In this document: positions 1 through 20,066 of the stretch, piece after piece
Layout of the letters: each line of letters opens with the position of its first letter
Position numbering within the stretch: the first letter of the stretch is position 1
Source of the DNA: Candidatus Bipolaricaulia bacterium
Lineage (GTDB): Bacteria > Bipolaricaulota > Bipolaricaulia > JBHIAT01
Length of the DNA: 35,550 nucleotides
Direction: 5' to 3'
Assembly: GCA_046758705.1 (NCBI GenBank)
Contig: JBHIAT010000014.1
Span: 1 to 35,550 of the forward strand
Notes under the pieces: model-generated
Seen by the model: only the letters and a program-made list of their open reading frames with translations
Databases searched by the model: none
Told to the model about the DNA's origin: nothing
Translations under genes and position numbers: made by a program

Positions 1-1417
1 GATCGTCGACCGAGATGAACCCCAGGATCCGATCTCCCACATACAGGGGGATGAACAACGCATCGCCCGGGTACCAGTCCTTGATCTCCCCGACCGACAT
101 GCGGCTTTTCCGCACGACCATTTCAGGATCCCAGGCGAACTGGCCCTGGGGGATGTAATAGGACCGGCTGAGCTTAAATCGTCCGTCAACGATCTGCTTG
201 CGATCCTCTGGAGCGACCGGGTTCCACTTGATCTTCTTCTCCTCCTCCTGGGTCAGCCCAGCGGTGGCGACCTTCACCACGTTTGCCTGCTCGATCTGCA
301 CCGGGGGGACCGGTCGTTCATAGAGCGAGATCACCGCCCGTCGGAACCGGCTGTGCCGGGTGATGATATCGGTCGCTCGGCCCAGGATCTCATCCACGTC
401 CTGTAGCGACAGGAATCCCTCACCTACTCCCAGCAGGCTCCTCTCGAGTCGTCGCTCCGATCTCCGATCGGTGATCTCTGGCTCTGGCTCCTGGAGCTCT
501 TTTTCCTTCTCACTCAAGACATCGAGGAACGTCTCCACCACCTGCTCATCAAACTGGGTCCCCGCATTCCTGTGCAGCTCGGCGATCGCCTCCGTTTTAG
601 AGAGCGCGTCTCGGTACGGACGGTCGGTCGTCATCGCGTCATAGGCGTCTACCACCGCGATGATCCGGGCTTCCAGGCTGATCTCTTCCCCATTTAGCCC
701 CTCTGGATAACCTTTTCCATCGACCCGCTCGTGATGCTGCTCGATGATCCAGGCCGCCTTCTCCAAGAAGGACTTTTGCGCGGCCATCCGACTGCCGATG
801 GACGGATGCTTGTGCATCTCCACCCGCTCTGCCTCGGTGAGCTTGCCCGATTTGCCGAGGATGTGCTCAGCGATCCCCGCCTTCCCCAGATCATGGAGGT
901 AGGCCGCGTACGCCAGAATATCCAGCCGGTCGGCAGATAGACCGAGCTTTTCTCCTGTCCTCGTCGAGAGCTCCTCGATTCTCCGACAATGTTCTTCGGT
1001 ATATTTGTCCTTCCGTTCGACCTCCTGTGCCAGAGAGACCAAGTCCTTGATATCATCTCGCTCTATATGAAAGGCCGGCTCAGATAGCACATGAAGGAAT
1101 GTTACCCCCGTCCCGGTCTTGAAATAGATTGTCTCTTGCAAAGCATGAGCAAATATGTAATCCCCGGCCCGAAGAACGATCTGTTCACCTTTATCCTCCC
1201 CCATCCAGGTCAACTCTCCGGCCAAGATATAGAGGAACTCATAACCCTGACCTTCCTCGGCAGGGTAAATGGTGAACCTTTGCTCTGGAGGGATGGTGAT
1301 CTTGCTGACTTCCAGGTCACTCCCATGAGCAAGAAGCCTGAGCTCCGCATTAAGGGGTGACCGTACTGTATCGATAGTCTCATCCGAGCGATGGAGACTT
1401 AATCCTTCCGTGTCCAT
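1..1417 (-). CDS. Cupin-HD-GYP-GAF c-di-GMP phosphodiesterase, copy A (3' end runs off the window start)
   Basis: Not in the ORF track. Manual translation from ATG 1417 gives MDTEGLSLHRSDETIDTVRSPLNAELRLLAHGSDLEVSKITIPPEQRF...EVERKDKYTEEHC...YLHDLGK...HHERVDGKGYP, collinear with copy B (2152-3678). Confidence 0.9.
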   Translation of the reverse strand, partial: MDTEGLSLHRSDETIDTVRSPLNAELRLLAHGSDLEVSKITIPPEQRFTIYPAEEGQGYEFLYILAGELTWMGEDKGEQIVLRAGDYIFAHALQETIYFKTGTGVTFLHVLSEPAFHIERDDIKDLVSLAQEVERKDKYTEEHCRRIEELSTRTGEKLGLSADRLDILAYAAYLHDLGKAGIAEHILGKSGKLTEAERVEMHKHPSIGSRMAAQKSFLEKAAWIIEQHHERVDGKGYPEGLNGEEISLEARIIAVVDAYDAMTTDRPYRDALSKTEAIAELHRNAGTQFDEQVVETFLDVLSEKEKELQEPEPEITDRRSERRLERSLLGVGEGFLSLQDVDEILGRATDIITRHSRFRRAVISLYERPVPPVQIEQANVVKVATAGLTQEEEKKIKWNPVAPEDRKQIVDGRFKLSRSYYIPQGQFAWDPEMVVRKSRMSVGEIKDWYPGDALFIPLYVGDRILGFISVDD

Positions 1418-1456
1418 GATGCAATCCTAGGACAACATCGAGAGTCACATATAAAT

Positions 1457-1500
1457 TTAGCCGGGATCAAGCAACACGACCACAACTTGATCCCGACTAA
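1457..1500 (-). terminator. 15-bp stem hairpin between the small secreted gene and HD-GYP gene (copy A); stabiliser or weak terminator
   Basis: Arms TTAGCCGGGATCAAG (1457-1471) and CTTGATCCCGACTAA (1486-1500). The single mismatch is a U-G pair on the minus-strand RNA. Only AUUUA follows, so not a canonical intrinsic terminator. Confidence 0.6.
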
Positions 1501-1527
1501 TCCCACATTAAAGCAAATAAAATAAAT

Positions 1528-1971
1528 CTAGTGTACCCGTATCGGATCGATTAACCTTTTAATGGCTAATGGCCTGTTCCTCCGCCCATTCCCATTAGGG
1601 GCCTTGCCCGTGCCAGCAGGGGAATCCGGTCCGAACCAAACCCAGTTCCACTCCTTTTTGACGTTGCTGAGGTCGAAGCCGCACCTGCGCGCATGTCGCT
1701 TCATCCATCGATTGAAGATCCTCTGCGACCTCCGTTTCGCCCTGCGAGCGTACCGGTTCACCTGTTGGCGAGTCGTCGCCCCGTTCGCCAGATATTGATA
1801 ACTCGCAACCGTGGCCGCGATCCTACTGTTGGTAATTTGAATTAGTTGCTCCAACGAACCAAATCTACAGATTCTTCTTTGACGCGCGTATGCATCCGGC
1901 ACGGAGAGGACCGCCACCACTAACACAAATACGAGGGCTCCAACTACGATAACACCTGACCTACTTCTCAT
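1528..1971 (-). CDS. Small cationic secreted protein A (signal peptide, 2 Cys, TNxRI / RRCG / DPIR motifs), unknown function
   Basis: SD AAGGAGGT upstream; basic N-terminus, hydrophobic stretch and AYA cleavage motif; paralogous to 3825-4265. Confidence 0.85.
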   Translation of the reverse strand: MRSRSGVIVVGALVFVLVVAVLSVPDAYARQRRICRFGSLEQLIQITNSRIAATVASYQYLANGATTRQQVNRYARRAKRRSQRIFNRWMKRHARRCGFDLSNVKKEWNWVWFGPDSPAGTGKAPNGNGRRNRPLAIKRLIDPIRVH

Positions 1972-1978
1972 CTAACCT

Positions 1979-2082
1979 ACCTCCTTACGACAGGCTCACT
2001 TCCTTCGGCAGCTCGGCTATCCTTGCGGACCCGTAGCTTTGCGTCCCCATCTTTCGATGAGTTTGCCTTTGTCGCGTGAGGT
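1979..2082 (-). ncRNA. c-di-GMP-I (GEMM-I) riboswitch with expression platform, copy A
   Basis: Minus strand reads GACAAAG-GCAAAC-UCAUC-GAAA-GAUGG-GGACGCAAAGC-UACGGGUCC-GCAA-GGAUAGCCGAGCUGCCGAA. This matches the GEMM-I consensus (GCAAAC, GNRA-capped P2, GGACGCAAAGC, ...GCCGA). G at the G20-equivalent position (2067). Confidence 0.92.
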
Positions 2083-2128
2083 GGCTTGATGGCTCTGCCA
2101 TTGGACACGTCTTTAGGCTTCACCAAAT

Positions 2129-2160
2129 ATTATACCCCAAAAATCGAAGTTTTATACCTG
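2129..2160 (-). promoter_or_regulatory. Promoter of module A: GGGTATAAT -10 plus conserved upstream CAGGTATnAAACTT block
   Basis: TATAAT at 2129-2134 (minus); the same arrangement is conserved in copy B. Confidence 0.6.
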
Positions 2161-3678
2161 GCCGATCGGATAGCTTCGTTTGATCCGCGTTTCAAACCGG
2201 GCATCCTGGATCGCGATCGCGATCAGATTGGCAAAGATCTCGATCAACTCCAGGTTCTTCGGGATCGGTGCCCGTCCGTCGATCGGATCGTCGACCGAGA
2301 TGAACCCCAAGATCCGATCTCCCACATACAGGGGGATGAACAACGCATCGCCCGGGTACCAGTTCTTGATCTCCCCGACCGACATGCGACTCCTCCTCAC
2401 CACCGTTTCAGGATCCCAGGCGAACCGGCCTTGAGGGATGTAATAGGAGCGGTTGAGCTTGAACCGATCGTCAACGATCTGCTTGCGAACCTTCGGCGCG
2501 ATCGAGCTCTGCTTGATCTTCTTCTCCTCCTCCTGAGTCAGTCCGGAGGTGGCGATCTTCACCACGTTCGCCTCCTCGATCTGCAACACGGGGACCGGTC
2601 GCTCATAGAGCGAGATTACCGCCCGTCGGAACCGGCTGTGCTGGGTGATGGCATCGATCGCCCGATCCAGGATCTCGTTCACGTCCTGTATTGACAGGAG
2701 TTCCTCACCCACTCCCAGTAGCTTCCTCTCAAGTCGCTGCCCCGATCTCCGATTGATGATCGGCTCCTGGAACTCCTCCTCACTCAAGACATCGAGGAAC
2801 GCCCCCACCACCTGCTCATCAAACTGGGTCCCCGAATTCTTGTGCAGCTCTGCGATCGCCTCTGCTTCAGAGAGTGCGTCTCGGTACGGACGGTCGGTCG
2901 TCATCGCATCGTAGGCGTCCACCACCGCGATGATCCGGGCCTCCAGGCTGATCTCTTCTCCGCTCAGCCCCTTCGGATAACCTTTTCCATCGACCCGCTC
3001 GTGATGCTGCTCGATGATCCGACCCGCCTCCTTCAAGAAGGACTTTTGCTGGGCCATCTGCCTGCCGATGGACGGATGCTTGCGGATCTCCTCGCGCTCT
3101 GCCTCGGTGAGCTCGCCCGCTTTGCCGAGAATGTGCTCAGAGATCCCGGCCTTCCCCAGATCATGGAGGTAGGCCGCGGACGCCAGATTCTCCAGCCGGT
3201 CGGCGGACAGACCGAGTTTCTCCCCTGTCTTTATCGAAAGCCCCTCGATTCTCCCACAATGTTCTTCGGTGTATTCGTCCTTGCGCTCGACCTCCTGCAC
3301 CAGGGAGATCAGGTCTTTGATCTCCTTTCGCTCTAGATGAAAGGCCGGTTCAGATAGCATATGGAGGAGTGTCACTTCCGTCTCAGCCTTGAAATAGGCT
3401 TGCTTTTGTAAATTATGAAAAAATATGTAATCTCCTGCCTGGAGAACGATCTGTTCATCCTCTCCCGTCCAGGTCAACTCCCCGGCCAAGATATAGAGGA
3501 ACTCATGACCCTTGCCATTACCGGTCTCGGGCGGATAAAGGGAGAACCTTTGCTCTGGAGGGATGGTGATCTTGCTGACCTCCAGATCATCCCCATGAGC
3601 AAGAAGCCTGAGCTCTATCTGCCCTTGCCTTACTGTATCGATAGCATCACTCGAGCGATGGAGACTTAATCCTTGCAT
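2152..3678 (-). CDS. Cupin-HD-GYP-GAF c-di-GMP phosphodiesterase, copy B (508 aa from ATG 3678)
   Basis: Cupin-like HEFLYILAGEL...LQAGDYIFF; HD-GYP motifs EHCGRI, LHDLGK, HHERVDGKGYP, VDAYDAMTTDRPYR; C-terminal GAF-like (FIPLYVGDRILGFISVDDP...FANLIAIAI). Start chosen by alignment with copy A and an AAGGA RBS. Confidence 0.92.
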   Translation of the reverse strand: MQGLSLHRSSDAIDTVRQGQIELRLLAHGDDLEVSKITIPPEQRFSLYPPETGNGKGHEFLYILAGELTWTGEDEQIVLQAGDYIFFHNLQKQAYFKAETEVTLLHMLSEPAFHLERKEIKDLISLVQEVERKDEYTEEHCGRIEGLSIKTGEKLGLSADRLENLASAAYLHDLGKAGISEHILGKAGELTEAEREEIRKHPSIGRQMAQQKSFLKEAGRIIEQHHERVDGKGYPKGLSGEEISLEARIIAVVDAYDAMTTDRPYRDALSEAEAIAELHKNSGTQFDEQVVGAFLDVLSEEEFQEPIINRRSGQRLERKLLGVGEELLSIQDVNEILDRAIDAITQHSRFRRAVISLYERPVPVLQIEEANVVKIATSGLTQEEEKKIKQSSIAPKVRKQIVDDRFKLNRSYYIPQGRFAWDPETVVRRSRMSVGEIKNWYPGDALFIPLYVGDRILGFISVDDPIDGRAPIPKNLELIEIFANLIAIAIQDARFETRIKRSYPIGQV

Positions 3679-3764
3679 GATACGATCCTTAAGGAAGATG
3701 TACGGATTGACAAAAACCGTCACCGTAAATGAGGAGGGCCTCCAGATGCTTTAGTCCTTTAAAT

Positions 3765-3814
3765 TTAGCCGGGATCAAGCAACACGACTGCAATTTGAAC
3801 TTGATCCCGGCTAA
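3765..3814 (-). terminator. 15-bp perfect stem hairpin between small secreted gene and HD-GYP gene (copy B)
   Basis: TTAGCCGGGATCAAG (3765-3779) / CTTGATCCCGGCTAA (3800-3814); arms conserved with copy A while the loop length differs. Confidence 0.6.
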
Positions 3815-3824
3815 TATCATCAAA

Positions 3825-4265
3825 TTATACCCTTACTGGTACTGGCCCTCTACGTCTACCTCTTCCCGATCCGGCGAACCGTATCGGATCGACCTCAACC
3901 GTGTGACTTCCCCACGGTCCTTGGAGGGTGACTGCCTGGTAATAATGTTCGAACGTGTAACCGCACCGTCTGCCCAGTCTCTCTGCCCTTCTGACGATTC
4001 TCTTCGTCTTCCTGAGCAGCTTGCGGACGATCTTTCTCACCTTTCTGGTATCCTCCACCGACGCCGCTTTATGCCTAGCTATAGCAATCATGCGTTGGAT
4101 CCTGAGGTTGGTTATGTTGACAAGCCGGTGCAACCGCTCGATGCTACACCTATTTCTGTTTCTATCTCTATTGCCACGCGCGAATGTGTTCGGTGCAGCG
4201 AGGATCGCCACCACCAATACCAATAGGAGGGTCCCAACTACGGCAAAAGATAACCTCCTTCTCAT
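3825..4265 (-). CDS. Small cationic secreted protein B (signal peptide, 2 Cys, TNxRI / RRCG / DPIR motifs), unknown function
   Basis: SD AAGGAGGT; signal peptide ending TFA; paralog of 1528-1971. Confidence 0.85.
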   Translation of the reverse strand: MRRRLSFAVVGTLLLVLVVAILAAPNTFARGNRDRNRNRCSIERLHRLVNITNLRIQRMIAIARHKAASVEDTRKVRKIVRKLLRKTKRIVRRAERLGRRCGYTFEHYYQAVTLQGPWGSHTVEVDPIRFAGSGRGRRRGPVPVRV

Positions 4266-4272
4266 CTGAGCT

Positions 4273-4375
4273 ACCTCCTTATGACAGGCTCACTTCCTTC
4301 GGCAGCTCGGCTGTCCTTGCGGATCCGCAGCTTTGCGTCCCCATCTTTCGATGAGTTTGCCTTTGTCACGGAGGT
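4273..4375 (-). ncRNA. c-di-GMP-I (GEMM-I) riboswitch with expression platform, copy B
   Basis: Minus strand GUGACAAAG-GCAAAC-UCAUC-GAAA-GAUGG-GGACGCAAAGC-UGCGGAUCC-GCAA-GGACAGCCGAGCUGCCGAA; near-identical to copy A; G20-equivalent is G (4361). Confidence 0.92.
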
Positions 4376-4420
4376 GCCTTGATGATTTCACCTTTGGACG
4401 CGTCTCTGGGCCTCACCGGA

Positions 4421-4452
4421 ATTATACCCGAGAAACCTAAGTTTGATACCTG
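4421..4452 (-). promoter_or_regulatory. Promoter of module B (GGGTATAAT -10 plus conserved upstream block)
   Basis: TATAAT at 4421-4426 (minus), preceded by CAGGTATCAAACTT as in copy A. Confidence 0.6.
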
Positions 4453-4500: not shown

Positions 4501-4530
4501 TTGACAACCCCGCCCGGTATGTCCTATGAT
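4501..4530 (+). promoter_or_regulatory. Sigma70-type promoter TTGACA-N18-TATGAT reading into the IscB omegaRNA
   Basis: TTGACA 4501-4506, TATGAT 4525-4530, followed by AAGGAGGT and then the IS left end at 4557. Confidence 0.7.
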
Positions 4531-4556
4531 TAAGTTTGAGCAAGGAGGTAATACAG

Positions 4557-4820
4557 GTCAGCCACCCCACGGTTGAAGCCGGGGGCTTGTGATAGGATAG
4601 GCAAGCCCGGGGCTGATCAGCCTCAGCCAGGGCCGAAAGGCTATCGGGCTACGTTGCGGGGAAGTGCCCAAGCCCAACTTCGCACCCTGGGGTGCGTGAG
4701 CCAGCCCCAGGCTCTGCAACCCGGATGTTAAACAGGCATACGGGGTTGAAGCCGGTGCGTCCGGGAGATGGCCGCCCTGTAACATTGGTGAGGCTCACTT
4801 CACCGGCGAAAGCCGAGGTT
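4557..4820 (+). ncRNA. IscB omegaRNA scaffold (HEARO-like)
   Basis: Characteristic segments GGCTTG...CAAGCCC, GATCAGCCTCAG, CTACGTT, CCAGCCCCAGGCTCTG, TTAAACAG, AACATTGGTGAGGC directly upstream of iscB. Confidence 0.82.
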
Positions 4821-4850
4821 GCCGACGTAAGGAGGCGCTCTAATTCTAAG

Positions 4851-5942
4851 ATGCGTGTGTTCGTACTGGATGTCAACAAGAGAGCTCTTGACCCGTGCCA
4901 TTCAGCTAGGGCACGGCAACTGCTGCGCTCCGGCCGTGCGGCGGTATTCCGACGGTATCCATTCACCATCATCCTGAAAGACCGCACCGCAGAGGAATCC
5001 GTCATGCACAGCCACCGAATCAAGATTGATCCCGGCAGCAGAGTGACTGGGCTGGCCCTGGTACAGGAGGAAACCGGGTGTGTCGTCTGGGCCGCCGAAC
5101 TCCAGCACCGGGGCGAGCAGATCAAGCGCCAGCTCCTGAAGCGAAGGGCGTTGCGGAGAGCGCGCCGCAACTACAAGACCCGTTACCGCAAGCCGCGGTT
5201 CGACAACCGCTGTCGATCCGACGAATGGCTACCACCTAGCCTGGAGAGCCGGGTCCGGAACATTATGACCTGGGTCGAACGCCTGCGGCGCTATGCTCCC
5301 GTTTCCGCTATCTCGGTCGAACTGGCCCACTTCGATACGCAACGGCTCCAGAACTCCGAGATTTCAGGCGTTAAATACCAGCAGGGAGAGTTGTTCGGTT
5401 ACGAGATGCGCGAATACCTGCTGGAGAAGTGGGGCCGTTGCTGTGCCTATTGTGAGGTAGAGAACGTCCCCTTGGAGGTCGAGGTAGGGACGAGCGGACG
5501 GACGAAGTACAACCGCACCCGATTGGGATTGTCCAAGGTGCACTGGACAGACGCTGCGTGTGTTGGGAAAAGCACACCTGACCGGCTCCACATCGAAACG
5601 GGACCGGTCTCCGTCATTCGTGCTACAGGTCACGGAAAGCGACAGCGGTGCGGCACGAACAGGTACGGCTTTCCGATTCGTCACGCGCCGCGGGCAAAGC
5701 GGTTTATGGGATTTCAGACGGGGGACGTGGTGCGGGCGATCGTCCCGCGCGGTAAACATGCGGGTGTCCACGAGGGTCGGATCGCGATCCGTTTTCGACC
5801 CTCGTTCAGGCTCAACGGCTTCGACGTGCATCCGAAGTATCTGCAGCTGTTGCAGAGAGCTGACGGATACGCGTATGCCCTTGAAACGGAATCCCTCGGG
5901 ACTCGAGAAAGGGAGTGCGATGCCTCCTCCCTCAGACTTTAA
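4851..5942 (+). CDS. iscB: IscB RNA-guided nuclease with in-frame deletion of the HNH catalytic region (363 aa)
   Basis: PLMP-like N-terminus (VFVLD..KRALDPC..ARARQLL), RuvC-I KIDPGS, Arg-rich bridge helix RRALRRARR..RYRKPRFDNR, WLPPS, RuvC-II ELAHFD, CAYC, RuvC-III HWTDAACVG. PLEVE joins directly to VGTSGRTKYNR. Confidence 0.88.
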   Translation: MRVFVLDVNKRALDPCHSARARQLLRSGRAAVFRRYPFTIILKDRTAEESVMHSHRIKIDPGSRVTGLALVQEETGCVVWAAELQHRGEQIKRQLLKRRALRRARRNYKTRYRKPRFDNRCRSDEWLPPSLESRVRNIMTWVERLRRYAPVSAISVELAHFDTQRLQNSEISGVKYQQGELFGYEMREYLLEKWGRCCAYCEVENVPLEVEVGTSGRTKYNRTRLGLSKVHWTDAACVGKSTPDRLHIETGPVSVIRATGHGKRQRCGTNRYGFPIRHAPRAKRFMGFQTGDVVRAIVPRGKHAGVHEGRIAIRFRPSFRLNGFDVHPKYLQLLQRADGYAYALETESLGTRERECDASSLRL

Positions 5943-6002: not shown

Positions 6003-7202
6003 GTGGGCAATATCAAGCAGTTATTCTTGGTGGGGACGTTAGGGCTGCTCGTTCTCGGCTTATTGTACGGTTGTGCTGCACCGCGGCGGGGGGTTGAGAT
6101 TCAACCTCGACCGCCCACTCCCCAGCCACAACCTACGCCCCAGGCCGAGGAGGAGACGCGAACCGTGACGGTCACCGGAGTCGGAGTCGATCAGGATAGC
6201 GCCTTGGAGAACGCCTACGAAACCGCCATCGAAGAAGCGGTGGGCTTCTTTATAAGCGCCCGTACCCAGATTCAAAACTACAAGCTCATCGATAAATCGA
6301 TCTACAAGAACCTGTCGGGGATGATCCGCAGACGGGAGATTCTGGAAGAGGGATTTACCCAAGACGGTGTCTATGAGGTGCGCGCCCGCATCACCGTCGC
6401 CGTGTCGGTGGACGTCATCCAACAGGAGCTGGCCGCTCTGGAGCTCCTTCAGGAGCGAATAGATCGCCCCCGGATCATGGTGGTGATCCCGGAGACACAC
6501 ATCGGTCAGCGGGTCCCCGATCCAGCCGGGGAGACCGAGGTCATCCGCAAACTGATCGAAAAGCGATTCAACGTCGTCGATCAGGCCCAGGTGCGGCGGA
6601 TCCGCGAGACGGAGGCGGCACAGCTCGCCCTGATGGGGGATACCCAGGCCGCCCAGCGGCTGGCCGCCGAGTTCGATGCCGAGGTGCTGATCATCGGAGA
6701 GGCGTTCAGCGAGAGCGCCGGCCAGACATTGGGGTTGGAGTCGGCCCGAGCGCGGGTCGAAGCTCGAGCGATCAAGGTCGACACCGGCGAGATCCTGGTA
6801 ACGAATGGGTTCTTCGCCTCGGCCGCCGACATCTCCCCCAACATCGCCGGGAAGCAGGCGCTGCAAAAGGCGGGGAGCGAGATGGCCGATTACCTCGTCG
6901 AACAGCTGATCCTGAAGTTCACCGAGTTCGCCAACAACGGCAACAACTTCCAGCTGTTGGTGACCCCGGTCTCGGTTGCCTTACTGCCAGCGTTGCGGGC
7001 CGGGTTGTTCGATATCGACGAGATGCGTGATGTCAACCTGCGCAGCTTCCAAGCCGATGGTCTCATCCGACTCGACGTGTTGTACAACGGCGATGTCGAC
7101 GACCTGGCGGCTGCGATCCTGGATTATCCATTCAGCGGGTTTGCATTGGAGATCGAGTTCCTATCGGCCAACCGGCTCAATCTGGCTTTGAAACCGAGCT
7201 GA
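6003..7202 (+). CDS. Lipoprotein with FlgT-N/LPP20-like N-terminal domain and TolB-N/CsgG-like middle domain
   Basis: RBS AAGGAGG, GTG start, lipobox LYG-C, Pro/Gln linker, TVTVTG...ALENAY..AIEEAVG, RPRIMVVIPE. Confidence 0.7.
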   Translation: MGNIKQLFLVGTLGLLVLGLLYGCAAPRRGVEIQPRPPTPQPQPTPQAEEETRTVTVTGVGVDQDSALENAYETAIEEAVGFFISARTQIQNYKLIDKSIYKNLSGMIRRREILEEGFTQDGVYEVRARITVAVSVDVIQQELAALELLQERIDRPRIMVVIPETHIGQRVPDPAGETEVIRKLIEKRFNVVDQAQVRRIRETEAAQLALMGDTQAAQRLAAEFDAEVLIIGEAFSESAGQTLGLESARARVEARAIKVDTGEILVTNGFFASAADISPNIAGKQALQKAGSEMADYLVEQLILKFTEFANNGNNFQLLVTPVSVALLPALRAGLFDIDEMRDVNLRSFQADGLIRLDVLYNGDVDDLAAAILDYPFSGFALEIEFLSANRLNLALKPS

Positions 7203-7233
7203 TCCTGGAGAGATGTCGCTCAGGAGGTAAAAA

Positions 7234-8190
7234 ATGAGAGGTATTAACCGTTCGTTCTATGCGTTCAGCCTACTGGTGCTGGTTCTGGTGGTCGTCATCG
7301 GATGTGCTCCTATTCCAACGTCCACCCAACCGTCGGCTTCGGTAAGGCCGGAGATTCCAATCCAGACGAGGATCATCGCGTTCGCTCCGATCCGCATCGC
7401 CGTCTCCGAGTTCGAGGACCGAAGTGGGACGATCTTCCGTTGGGCCGTCGGCAGGGGGATGTCCGACATGCTGACGACCGCCCTGTTTGAGACCGGCAAG
7501 TTCGAGCCGATCGAGCGCCAGGCGCTGGAGCAGGTTATCGCGGAACAACGGCTCGGGCTCTCCGGTCTGGTCAACCCCGCCACCGCTGCTGAAGTCGGCC
7601 GTATCCTGGGGGTCGAGCAGATCATCGTTGGTGCCGTCACCGAGTTCGGGATCCAAGAGACAGGGATAGACTTGCCTGGGGTCGGGGCGATCAGACAGGA
7701 CACCGCTCGGGTCGTCATCGACGTGCGCATCGTCGACACAACGACCGCAAAGATCCTGGCTGCCGCCACCGCTGAGGGGAGTGAATTCTCACGCGGCATC
7801 GCTATCAATGTCAACCGCTGGCAGCGGTTCAGGTTCGGGGACACGGGCTTCGACGACACGATCATCGGCAAGGCAACCCGCCAGGCGATCGATGAGTTGG
7901 TCGTTAAGATCAGCGATGCGATCCCATCCAAAGGTCTGGTGGCAACGGTCCAGGGGGATATCGTGATCCTGAACTTCGGGAGACGTTCCGATGCCGCGCC
8001 CGGGATGATCTTGAACGTCTACCGGACCGGGGAGCCGATCCGCGACCCGGTAACGGGTGAGGTGCTAACGTTGTTGGAGACGAAGCTGGGAGAGGTGCAG
8101 GTGATCGAGGTCCAGGAGAATGTGACCCTGGCGCGCAAACTTGGGGCTTTCGAGGTCGAGGTGGGGGATATCGTCCGACCTAAGATCTAG
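7234..8190 (+). CDS. CsgG/HfaB-family lipoprotein with FlgT-C-like C-terminal domain
   Basis: Lipobox VIG-C; IAVSEFED, GMSDMLTTAL..TGKF..IER..LEQV..EQ.LG.SG.V, G..TEFG, DVRIVDTTT; C-terminal DPVTGEVL. Confidence 0.82.
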   Translation: MRGINRSFYAFSLLVLVLVVVIGCAPIPTSTQPSASVRPEIPIQTRIIAFAPIRIAVSEFEDRSGTIFRWAVGRGMSDMLTTALFETGKFEPIERQALEQVIAEQRLGLSGLVNPATAAEVGRILGVEQIIVGAVTEFGIQETGIDLPGVGAIRQDTARVVIDVRIVDTTTAKILAAATAEGSEFSRGIAINVNRWQRFRFGDTGFDDTIIGKATRQAIDELVVKISDAIPSKGLVATVQGDIVILNFGRRSDAAPGMILNVYRTGEPIRDPVTGEVLTLLETKLGEVQVIEVQENVTLARKLGAFEVEVGDIVRPKI

Positions 8191-18814: not shown

Positions 18815-20066
18815 GTGACGACTCCCCATGAATGAATTCAGGGGCTTCTCAGTTCATCGCCCCGACCTCCGTCGGGACTCCCTGAAGGCTCCGCCCGAGC
18901 CTCTGGATATTCACCGCCGCATTGTGATCTCGATGTAACTCCAAGCCACAATGCGGACACCTGTGCCACCTCTGAGAAAGACTCTTGATCACTATCTCTT
19001 CGCATCCCGAGCACTTCTGGTTGGTCCACTGAGGGGTCACTGCAACCACATCTCTACCAGCTTCTTCCGCTTTGTAGCAGACATAGCGCAGAAACTGTCC
19101 CCAGCCTGCATCCGATATGCTCTTGGCGAGATGGCAATTCTTGACCATGTTCTGAATGTTTAAATCCTCATAGTAGATGCGGTCATACTGATTGACCAAC
19201 TTTCGACTCAGCTTGTGATGGAAGTCCTTGCGCTGATTTTGAACTTTCTCGTGGGCTCGTTGAAGCAGCCGTACGGCTTTATGATGCCGGTTACTTCCTC
19301 GTTTACGCCGGGATACTCGTCGTTGCGCCTTGGTCAACCGTCGTTCAGCCTTGCGATACCATCGGGGATTCTCAATCTGGGTTCCATCGCTCAACGTCGC
19401 CAAGCTCTCCACACCCACATCAATCCCCACATCTTTGCCCATCTTAGGTAACGGCTCAGGTTGGTCCATCTCGACCGAGAAACAGGCGTACCAACGGCCA
19501 GCCTTCCGTATGATGGTTGCCGTCTTGATTCGGCCTTGCAGCGGACGATGTAACTTGATCTTGACGGCACCGATCTTGGACAGCCAGAGTTTGCCATCTT
19601 TCAGGTGGACGCTGCCATTGCTCGGTTGGGGAAAGGTAAAGGAGCTGTTTGAACCGAGAGACTGATCGAACAGCCAAACCGCTTCCAGGCGATGCGCCGC
19701 TCTTGCAGCCCTGCGTTATAAACCTCTCTACAGACATCGAGCCAGGCTTGGAGGATCTCAACTTGTTTGCGTGTCAGGTAGAGTCTGTATTTGAAGGTCT
19801 TGCGCATGGATCTTGATCTTGTCCTTTACTTAAATTACATCATAATCGAACTCACGACCCCGTGCCACGACAGATGTCGTAAGTAAAGGGTGAATGTTGT
19901 CACTATGACCAAACTATAACGATGATTCCTCGATGCTTGGCAGGTCAGTTCAGTCAGGAGAAGGAGAAGAGATCAACCGCCTAACGGCGGTTACGAGGGG
20001 TCCACGTATCCCTCGTATCCCCATGGATCAATCCAGAGGGCTTATGGCCGCCCCTCGTGCTTCCCT
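18815..20066 (-). mobile_element. Non-autonomous IS605-type TnpB element between convergent murE and coaE
   Basis: Right-end hairpin (minus) GAAGCCCCTGAATTCATTCATGGGGAGTCGTCAC ending at 18815; left-end hairpin AAGCCCTCTGGATTGATCCATGGGG near 20019-20043; TGAT at 20067-20070 as candidate target motif; no tnpA. Confidence 0.8.
18849..19807 (-). pseudogene. tnpB: TnpB, frameshifting internal deletion near 19642-19648
   Basis: N-terminal MRKTFKYRLY..VYNAGL is in one frame; SFTFPQ...GIDVG...EDL...CSGC..CPHC..RDHNAA is in another. The helical segment normally between them is missing. Confidence 0.88.

Follow-up and report, generated by a model that had tools for sequence, protein, structure and literature searches.

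Tandem c-di-GMP riboswitch units with genes for a small, putatively exported protein and a cupin-HD-GYP-GAF enzyme in a Bipolaricaulia genome

[quoted passage not shown] The first GEMM papers reportedly placed these aptamers upstream of cyclase and phosphodiesterase genes, and to our knowledge the control of HD-GYP enzymes with sensor domains other than a receiver is poorly understood. Here we analyse the first 35,550 bases of contig C14 (JBHIAT010000014.1) of a Candidatus Bipolaricaulia genome (G000; assembly of 3.7 Mb in 319 contigs, 93.9% complete), the whole of which is called the window. Our subject is its positions 1-4452, where two copies of a unit on the minus strand combine a c-di-GMP-I aptamer, a gene for a small, probably exported protein and a gene for a cupin-HD-GYP-GAF protein.

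Several described systems share parts of this layout. The aptamers resemble class-I c-di-GMP riboswitches in their score of about twice the cut-off, their match to the consensus and their position in a 5' leader, and differ from them in ranking highest against the model of the GGC variant, in an apparently translational platform with a predicted anti-Shine-Dalgarno 5' of the aptamer, and in their new target genes. The enzymes carry an HD_5 domain with the HD and HHExxDGxGYP motifs of HD-GYP phosphodiesterases, whereas a cupin-like barrel at the N-terminus and a GAF domain at the C-terminus stand in place of a receiver as their putative sensors, and a small gene for an exported protein lies upstream. 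Like the Rap-Phr systems of Bacillota, the pair is a two-gene cassette with a Sec signal, a conserved C-terminal peptide and an adjacent cytoplasmic signalling enzyme; unlike them, the partner is a cupin/HD_5/GAF protein with no TPR receptor, the peptide gene comes first, and the motif is conserved instead of diversified. An upstream open reading frame (ORF) with an export signal, a variable spacer and a C-terminal motif is also the plan of the substrates that monitor Sec and YidC (SecM, MifM, VemP and the RAPP family; PMC10987492, PMC7897499, PMC10951233), from which the window genes differ in the downstream gene, in a non-RAPP motif, in repeats of the motif in some members and in an often long gap. 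The tandem GEMM-I aptamers covered in PMC9481103 have a likeness in doublets and triplets elsewhere in G000. The nearest published analogue, compared by description only, is the CD1980.2 family of Clostridioides difficile, which PMC13724677 presents as multi-copy small, hydrophobic, positively charged proteins encoded directly behind class-I riboswitches. These proteins are 58 amino acids (aa) long, membrane-associated and repressed by c-di-GMP via termination, and are stated there to have no homologues outside C. difficile; small proteins behind aptamers are thus common to both cases, while the C. difficile family has no phosphodiesterase partner.

We propose that each unit in the window is a c-di-GMP-responsive operon with a translational ON switch, an exported small protein and a feedback phosphodiesterase, a reading to which we give about even chances. 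The small gene and the enzyme gene also occur side by side in many other genomes of the phylum.

Two head-to-tail units and their aptamers

The first-pass annotation had described two head-to-tail units on the minus strand, each with a promoter, a riboswitch, a small gene, a hairpin and an HD-GYP gene, and all of these elements were found where it had placed them. Units A and B lie ~2.28 kb apart, and the direct-repeat families in 1-4452 are spaced 2264-2308 nucleotides (nt) at an identity of 84-92%. Both units run from a TATAAT block through the aptamer, the small ORF and the hairpin to the cupin-HD-GYP-GAF gene:

4421..4452 (-), unit B promoter block: TATAAT at 4426-4421; 84% identical to the unit A block (repeat family D8)
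4371..4420 (-), unit B 5' leader: conserved GUGAGGCCCAGAGAC block, then an insert with the predicted anti-Shine-Dalgarno GGCACCUCC (4378-4370)
4297..4370 (-), c-di-GMP-I aptamer B: RF03167 70.4 bits, E 6.8e-15; RF01051 67.8 bits
4266..4296 (-), expression platform B: GGAAGUG (possible P1 extension), predicted anti-P1 GCCUGUCAU, Shine-Dalgarno AAGGAGG at 4280-4274
3825..4265 (-), small, probably exported protein B: ORF of 146 aa; predicted signal peptide aa 1-29; C-terminal VDPIRFAGSG
3765..3814 (-), intergenic hairpin B: 16-bp stem, 18-nt loop, no U-tract; -27.6 kcal/mol, z -5.6
2152..3678 (-), cupin-HD-GYP-GAF protein B: 508 aa from the ATG at 3678, the start being matched to copy A
2129..2160 (-), unit A promoter block: TATAAT at 2134-2129
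2077..2128 (-), unit A 5' leader: conserved GUGAAGCCUAAAGAC block, then an insert with the predicted anti-Shine-Dalgarno AGCCACCUC (2086-2078)
2003..2076 (-), c-di-GMP-I aptamer A: RF03167 77.1 bits, E 8.3e-17; RF01051 72.6 bits
1972..2002 (-), expression platform A: predicted anti-P1 GCCUGUCGU (1995-1987), Shine-Dalgarno AAGGAGG (1986-1980)
1528..1971 (-), small, probably exported protein A: ORF of 147 aa; C-terminal IDPIRVH
1449..1508 (-), intergenic hairpin A: 16-bp stem; -29.2 kcal/mol, z -7.1
2..1417 (-), cupin-HD-GYP-GAF protein A: first 472 aa, the 3' end being lost at the contig start

The ATG of each small ORF lies 31 nt past the aptamer, with AAGGAGG 7-8 nt before it. As had been pointed out, the units interlock: the TAA stop of enzyme copy B (2154-2152) falls inside the unit A promoter block AGGTATAAAACTTCGATTTTTGGGGTATAAT (AGGTATAAAACTTCG...GGGGTATAAT), which precedes aptamer A. 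Nucleotide identity between A and B is 95% in the aptamer, 90% in the linker and 81-88% in the enzyme gene, and 57%, with 46 gap columns, in the region of the mature small protein.

Two further units of this kind are present in the genome. On contig C23 three aptamers precede a small gene (134 aa) and an HD-GYP gene that runs off the contig, and on C66 one aptamer is followed by genes for a 90-aa small protein and a 672-aa HD_5 protein. Contigs C14 (at window base 1) and C23 (at C23:30525) both break off within paralogous HD-GYP genes, and do so at one and the same residue (...GFISVDD). No contig of the assembly holds the missing 3' ends of these two genes at high identity. The assembly has collapsed or broken on the HD-GYP repeat.

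The Rfam check of the aptamers upholds a GEMM-I riboswitch in each unit, since both score far above the RF01051 cut-off of 35 (about twice this value), although the label that ranks first is that of the GGC variant, RF03167, the cut-off of which (59) is also exceeded. Model position 37 is the single strongly conserved position of the RF03167 consensus at which both aptamers deviate: this consensus has ACGCGAAG, while both window aptamers have ACGCAAAG, with the canonical A of the parent RF01051, whose consensus at the separating site is GACGCAAAgCc. Correspondingly, they read ACGCAAAGC as in the canonical consensus where the GGC model has ACGCGAAGC. Both match the RF01051 consensus at AAAGGCAAAC, ACGCAAAGC and GCUGCCGAAG, and their ligand-pocket junctions, compared with that consensus, are canonical (AAAGGCAAAC, GACGCAAAGC, GCUGCCGAAG). 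By the nucleotide that separates the two models, the window aptamers are therefore canonical c-di-GMP-I, position 37 being presumably the one that names the variant; the GGC model outscores its parent by a few bits because the second hairpin of the window aptamers is short. In terms of the solved Vibrio structure, the adenine at position 37 presumably intercalates between the two guanines of the ligand, and the G of AAAGGC is presumably G20. Likewise, AAAGGCAAAC, GACGCAAAGC and GCUGCCGAAG presumably correspond to G20, A47 and C92 of that structure.

With regard to transcription, the proposal of a TATAAT promoter for each unit stood in part. The TATAAT boxes and a shared block are present, but a sigma-70 consensus scan of the minus strand called no promoter at the units because a -35 match was missing. 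The promoter call thus rests on the boxes and on the recurrence of the whole block before other aptamer loci. Before aptamers elsewhere in the genome GGGTATAAT is found again, preceded by a T-rich stretch. The block AGGTATAAAAnTTCGnTTTTTGGGGTAYAAT ... GUGAAGCCYAAAGACRYRUCCA precedes many G000 aptamers, on contigs C14, C23, C52, C66, C68, C81, C82, C97, C112, C149, C190, C207 and others, and its leader part (GUGAAGCCYAAAGAC..UCCA) recurs also between the tandem aptamers on C52. The conserved block may represent a promoter used in common, an additional RNA element or the trace of a spread of the whole cassette by duplication.

Units A and B are unlike the other loci in having ~25 extra nt between leader and aptamer. 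This insert carries CCACCUC in unit A or GCACCUCC in unit B, both complementary to the Shine-Dalgarno sequence. In the minimum-free-energy fold of unit A, positions 2086-2065 (the insert, the P1 5' strand and the adjoining junction) pair with 1995-1974 (the anti-P1 GCCUGUCGU and the Shine-Dalgarno), and in that of unit B positions 4378-4359 pair with 4289-4269. The unpaired probability of the GGAGG core is ~0 in the ligand-free ensemble of both units. When the aptamer consensus pairs are enforced, at a cost of 12-13.5 kcal/mol in the folding model, it becomes 0.17-0.71 in unit A and 0.02-0.52 in unit B. The 3' arm of the helix differs at three positions between A and B, two of which are compensated in the 5' arm (C2074:G1988 to U4368:A4282, and C2084:G1976 to G4377:C4270). 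Together, the folding and the two compensatory changes suggest, with moderate confidence, a translational ON switch.

The small protein and its partner enzyme across the phylum

Both enzyme copies match Pfam HD_5 (2.7e-37 for A, 8.7e-38 for B) and have the HD and HHExxDGxGYP motifs that characterize the HD-GYP subtype, in the form of HDLGK and HHERVDGKGYP, which are intact in the two copies and invariant in an 8-sequence alignment with six relatives. Against Pfam Cupin_2, copy B scores 29.3 bits and copy A 25.0 bits, on either side of the cut-off of 27.2; against GAF, copy B scores 28.1 bits (cut-off 22.4), and copy A is truncated by the contig end. The copies are 78% identical, and in NCBIfam they match a response-regulator HD-GYP family and HDIG, in both cases only in part. 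Both cupin and GAF are folds that bind ligands. We take the enzyme to be cytoplasmic, as inspection of the translations by eye revealed no transmembrane segment, and a working c-di-GMP phosphodiesterase would be the natural reading of its sequence. Among the titles and abstracts listed for HD-GYP with cupin, none describes this architecture, and among those searched more widely none had an HD-GYP gene under riboswitch control along with an exported partner. A search of genome contigs with the enzyme returned only matches to the HD domain (residues ~125-300) in Actinomycetota assemblies, which are uninformative for the pair.

Small proteins A and B are 30% identical over 87 aa. All four paralogues of the genome have a basic n-region, a hydrophobic core and an AxA-like site, as judged by eye, and end in (V/I)DP(I/V)R(V/I/F)(A/H)G-like sequences. 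Three of them are very basic: of their 101-118 mature residues 27-32 are Lys or Arg, and their isoelectric point (pI) is 11.7-12.0; the mature pI is 12.0 for A and 11.9 for B. Pfam and NCBIfam have no family for these proteins. The AlphaFold2 model, built on a 19-row alignment, has a predicted local distance difference test (pLDDT) score of at least 89 over roughly aa 41-130, and consists of an Arg/Lys-rich helical hairpin (helices 42-68 and 73-100) followed by four short beta-strands, with DPIR as the last turn. Foldseek found no match to this model in the PDB at E <=0.001, and the best Z reached by VIA-align among 48,161 chains was 7.8, to designed helical hairpins only, with no fold assigned. 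In the ESM Atlas only unnamed clusters were matched, at a template modelling (TM) score of ~0.6 for the long form and scores <=0.81 for the short form described below, which are to be read as leads only.

By their sequences, the small proteins form an unannotated family with a signal peptide, a variable middle and a terminal motif xP(I/V)(H/R)x(G/A)G. A profile search among 1.84 billion representatives returned three full-length relatives of 120-128 aa (E 3e-5 to 6e-4), and nine further proteins (P0008-P0016) came from a word-seeded search that used a wider alignment; two of these nine are named, both as 'hypothetical protein' (from a Latescibacteria assembly and from Neobacillus notoginsengisoli). 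The 2263-aa repeat protein P0004 matched in the region of the beta-strand motif only and was treated as a chance resemblance. Metagenome contigs searched with P0006 and P0016 yielded no relative. Within the phylum, the small-protein profile had clear matches in three other genomes, namely G092, where an aptamer is followed in turn by two small genes and a cupin-HD-GYP-GAF gene, G124, with an aptamer and two small genes, and G090, with a small gene and an enzyme gene and no aptamer at the gathering score. A match in G178 lay inside a 799-aa frame and was judged spurious.

The enzyme gave a wider view of the pairing. When 184 phylum genomes were searched with enzyme B, 108 had a match at E <=1e-40, and the DNA upstream was examined at 29 loci with 1.5-kb flanks and at 40 more with ~700 nt. 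An ORF with the motif was found upstream on the same strand at 20 of the 29 loci in the first set, or at 19 of 28 without the G090 locus used for the profile; among the nine misses, three had less than 300 nt of upstream sequence and two were masked with N. The second set gave 35 of 40 by a loose pattern and 33 of 40 after two loci (L134 and L141), each with a single loose match and no signal peptide, had been dropped as chance. Combined, a small ORF with a signal peptide and the motif stands directly upstream of the enzyme at 52 of 68 independent loci, from 66 other genomes. Control ORFs on the opposite strand carried the motif in 1 of 144 and 1 of 275 cases (2/419 in total). The gap between the two genes is ~30-40 nt in many relatives and 157-293 nt in many others. 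At 19 loci the neighbours of the pair belong to unrelated Pfam families that differ from family to family (SPFH, ABC ATPase, aminotransferase, PFOR and others), which indicates that the conserved unit is just these two genes.

Apart from the signal peptide and the motif, nothing is shared by all family members. In one large family of the phylum the precursor is only 57-102 aa long and consists of a signal peptide and 2-6 copies of (D/S/T/A)PIHVGGG(P), the first beginning immediately behind the AxA site and the last mostly finishing at the stop or close to it, as in MKR...VSADPIHVGGG...SSPIHVGGG. The partner enzyme of these short forms has ~300 aa and no GAF domain. Cysteine pairs surround the motif in several long forms. 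Behind the 52 instances of PIHVGGG stand 46 different DNA strings that vary mostly at third codon positions, so the motif is under selection at the protein level. A complex prediction for residues 29-66 of the L098 precursor with its cupin-HD-GYP partner scored 0.17 and 0.12 against a mark of 0.32; these values, obtained without controls, count neither for nor against any reading. The suggestion that the effector is undescribed was borne out, in that it has no Pfam or NCBIfam family and that paper searches on cupin-HD-GYP enzymes and riboswitch-linked HD-GYP genes, which did not include the peptide motif itself, brought up no description of the pair.

The proposed circuit and its alternatives

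The proposed circuit builds on the aptamers, the genes and their domains, the duplication and the phylum-wide pairing, and adds to these an ON direction, co-transcription, export, enzyme activity and an extracellular role. In the ligand-free state, the anti-Shine-Dalgarno and the P1 5' strand would pair with the anti-P1 and the Shine-Dalgarno, and translation of the first gene would be blocked. Once c-di-GMP is bound, the aptamer would keep its own 5' strand, the helix would dissolve and the ribosome-binding site would open. The first gene would yield a Sec-exported small protein, in G000 an Arg-rich and probably disulfide-stapled helical hairpin on a small beta-sheet, which outside the cytoplasm most likely binds polyanionic material of the envelope or matrix or serves as a signal. 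Polyanion binding is the simplest idea for the three Arg-rich paralogues and fits induction by c-di-GMP; the confident predicted fold and the cysteine pairs in many long forms favour a function after export. The second gene would supply a cytoplasmic cupin-HD-GYP-GAF phosphodiesterase that hydrolyses c-di-GMP and so exerts negative feedback. Given the ON switch and the operon, high c-di-GMP would thus bring about more of the exported protein and more of the enzyme that removes c-di-GMP. In evolutionary terms, an old pair of small protein and enzyme may have been placed behind c-di-GMP-I riboswitches and multiplied in G000 and G092.

A number of observations weigh against this circuit. Enforcing the aptamer frees the Shine-Dalgarno of unit B only partly, and in the folding of the C23 unit, computed with its third aptamer, the Shine-Dalgarno is open in both states with no sequestration; the ON logic may therefore not be general. 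The signal peptides of the small proteins were judged by eye. The mature pI of the fourth paralogue is 5.1, so that this protein lacks the cationic character, and most relatives, judged by eye from their sequences, are not cationic either. Of the basic secreted protein of ~147 aa announced by the first-pass annotation, the length, the Sec-type signal and the pI of A and B are accordingly retained, but cationic character is a peculiarity of three paralogues of G000 and not a family trait. The intergenic hairpin and the -10-like GGGTATAAT at 3832-3824, taken up below, could mean that expression of the enzyme is separate or attenuated. Finally, an Rfam c-di-GMP aptamer at the gathering score was present at none of 69 loci (the 29 loci and the 40 upstream stretches). 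This makes the riboswitch a rare add-on to an older pair and the feedback loop a lineage-specific rewiring. The conserved unit is the small exported protein with the cupin-HD-GYP enzyme, a pair independent of the riboswitch, and the expectation that homologs of the small protein co-occur with GEMM aptamers and HD-GYP genes holds for the enzyme but only rarely for the aptamer. The self-limiting circuit that is switched on at high c-di-GMP is supported in part, by the anatomy of the units, by the same-strand gene order and by the folds of A and B; the C23 fold does not reproduce the switch, and the riboswitch lies outside the core pair.

Other explanations would break the circuit at different points. 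We infer co-transcription of the small gene and the enzyme gene from their conserved order and the short gaps between them in many relatives. The riboswitch might instead govern the small gene alone, with the HD-GYP gene expressed from an internal promoter or following termination or processing of the transcript at the hairpin, in which case there would be no built-in feedback. The conserved hairpin noted earlier between the genes does exist as a strong 16-bp stem in both intergenic regions, and is not a dispersed repeat, its two other 12-mer matches in the genome both lying in unrelated sequence. Just before it, GGGTATAAT at 3832-3824 (-) overlaps the stop of small ORF B, is -10-like and has the -10 form seen before many genes of this genome; the gaps of 110 nt in unit A and 146 nt in unit B count in the same direction. 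However, the hairpin has no U-tract and was not called by a terminator scan, unit A has only GGGTACACT at the place matching 3832-3824, and the same-strand order of small gene and enzyme recurs at 52/68 loci with gaps down to the ~30-40 nt typical of operons, so that we consider independent expression of the enzyme quite unlikely. In our view it is very improbable that the tandem arose artificially when a repeated locus was assembled from metagenome data. The start of the contig in copy A at the very residue where C23 ends does imply that the assembler broke on the repeat, and none of the 24 contig pieces listed out of 86 public ones is seen to bridge 2077-2333. The units nevertheless differ at 5-43% of positions, depending on the part, and are thus distinct sequences; pieces specific to each of them (1280-2030 and 3550-4358) are both present in three runs of one study, and the window itself joins A to B.

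Two more explanations concern what the small gene does. It might encode an exported pro-peptide whose motif is a signal that acts on the adjacent enzyme, by re-import or through a sensor, and sets c-di-GMP turnover, much as in Rap-Phr systems or in the action of the diffusible signal factor (DSF) via RpfG, with the riboswitch closing the loop in G000. The motif is the sole conserved part of the family and the enzyme the sole conserved neighbour (19 loci), the short forms with 2-6 copies from the signal-peptidase site to the stop are laid out like a precursor that holds several copies of a peptide, the mature region has diverged much faster than the enzyme (57% versus 81-88% nucleotide identity), and the cupin and GAF folds could bind a ligand. 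Yet quorum signal peptides usually diversify whereas this motif is conserved across the phylum, the motif of the long form is modelled within a folded beta-sheet at pLDDT >90 and not as a free tail, several long forms have cysteine pairs around it, and no linked processing protease or importer was seen among the neighbours at the 19 loci, which makes a pro-peptide rather unlikely. A cis-acting monitoring substrate of the SecM, MifM or VemP kind, in which a stall at the motif would set translation of the HD-GYP gene according to export load, we regard as decidedly unlikely. Four features by which arrest peptides were sought in PMC10987492 are found here (a small unannotated upstream ORF, an export signal, a conserved C-terminus and a spacer >30 aa), the spacer varies widely in length as it does there, (R/H)x(A/G)G(G/P) bears a faint likeness to RAGP and RAPP-like arrest motifs, and the same source mentions that such peptides also lie upstream of genes without a relation to Sec or YidC. 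Still, the motif falls outside the RAPP-like motifs given in PMC10987492 and the downstream gene is not secA, secDF or yidC. In the short forms the first copy follows the signal peptide directly, so that no pulling force would be possible. In unit B 17 codons and then 146 nt separate the motif from the enzyme start, and over the gap of 157-293 nt in many relatives a stalled ribosome is too distant to expose the following ribosome-binding site. The confident fold and the cysteine pairs, moreover, point to a protein that functions after export.

A broader reading places the phylum-wide cassette at the centre: an exported motif xPI(H/R)x(G/A)G, in one or 2-6 copies, would govern the cupin-HD-GYP enzyme, and four copies in G000 would have been captured by riboswitches. 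We put this forward tentatively, as possible but more probably wrong than right. If true, the motif, as a re-imported ligand or as a nascent-chain stall, would couple events outside the membrane to c-di-GMP breakdown, and in G000 the loop would be closed, with c-di-GMP inducing its own destroyer plus the peptide that tunes that destroyer.

Genomic setting and significance

Genome G000 has 27 matches to RF01051, all above the cut-off, and 30 to RF03167, of which 22 are above it. Among 151 phylum genomes sampled, 145 have at least one c-di-GMP-I match, and G000, with 27 in 3.7 Mb, has the most. Tandem doublets and triplets of c-di-GMP-I aptamers occur at C52:3498-3788, C52:5154-5325, C23:28238-28607, C55:19848-20036, C81:6940-7112 and C149:3050-3221. 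These arrays contain a second aptamer subtype, GGGUAAAC ... GCACAAAGCC, in which a G-C pair is swapped to U-A, and which takes the promoter-distal place in the doublets and on C52 and the middle place in the C23 triplet. Other aptamer-led genes (at L001, L007, L013, L027 and other loci) encode products with an N-terminal hydrophobic segment. Eleven aptamer-led proteins were tested; DUF7305 was present in three, five had no Pfam family, and one was a type II/IV secretion ATPase with an MshEN domain. The aptamer regulon of G000 looks surface- or pilus-related.

Directly upstream of unit B, at 4501-5942 (+) of the window, lies an IscB element with a sigma-70-like promoter (TTGACA-18-TATGAT, 4501-4530), a HEARO (omega) RNA at 4557-4803 (117.9 bits) and an IscB ORF at 4692-5942 (RRXRR E 6e-71; NCBIfam guided_IscB 326.8 bits against 175). 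The guided_IscB match falls into two stretches, the best of which covers profile positions 1-208 of 314. A second element, at 18849-19469 (-), is a TnpB-like ORF of 206 aa with OrfB_IS605 and Cas12f1-like TNB domains, which is short and may be truncated. At 6003-8190 (+), divergent from the riboswitch units, lie two further genes: the product of the first has 399 aa, begins like a lipoprotein and has no Pfam family, and the second (7234-8190, 127 bits) belongs to the CsgG family. A link of the CsgG-like gene to the pair was considered and dropped, since in other phylum genomes the CsgG matches are on other contigs than the pair.

A riboswitch that switches on the destroyer of its own ligand, as we propose for the units of G000, would be a compact homeostat. 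Beyond this genome, a family without a Pfam or NCBIfam model is tied to an HD-GYP gene at about three quarters of the related loci, and such a conserved exported partner offers a concrete hypothesis for the control of HD-GYP enzymes. With its many aptamers, G000 is also a good model for a riboswitch-based c-di-GMP regulon.

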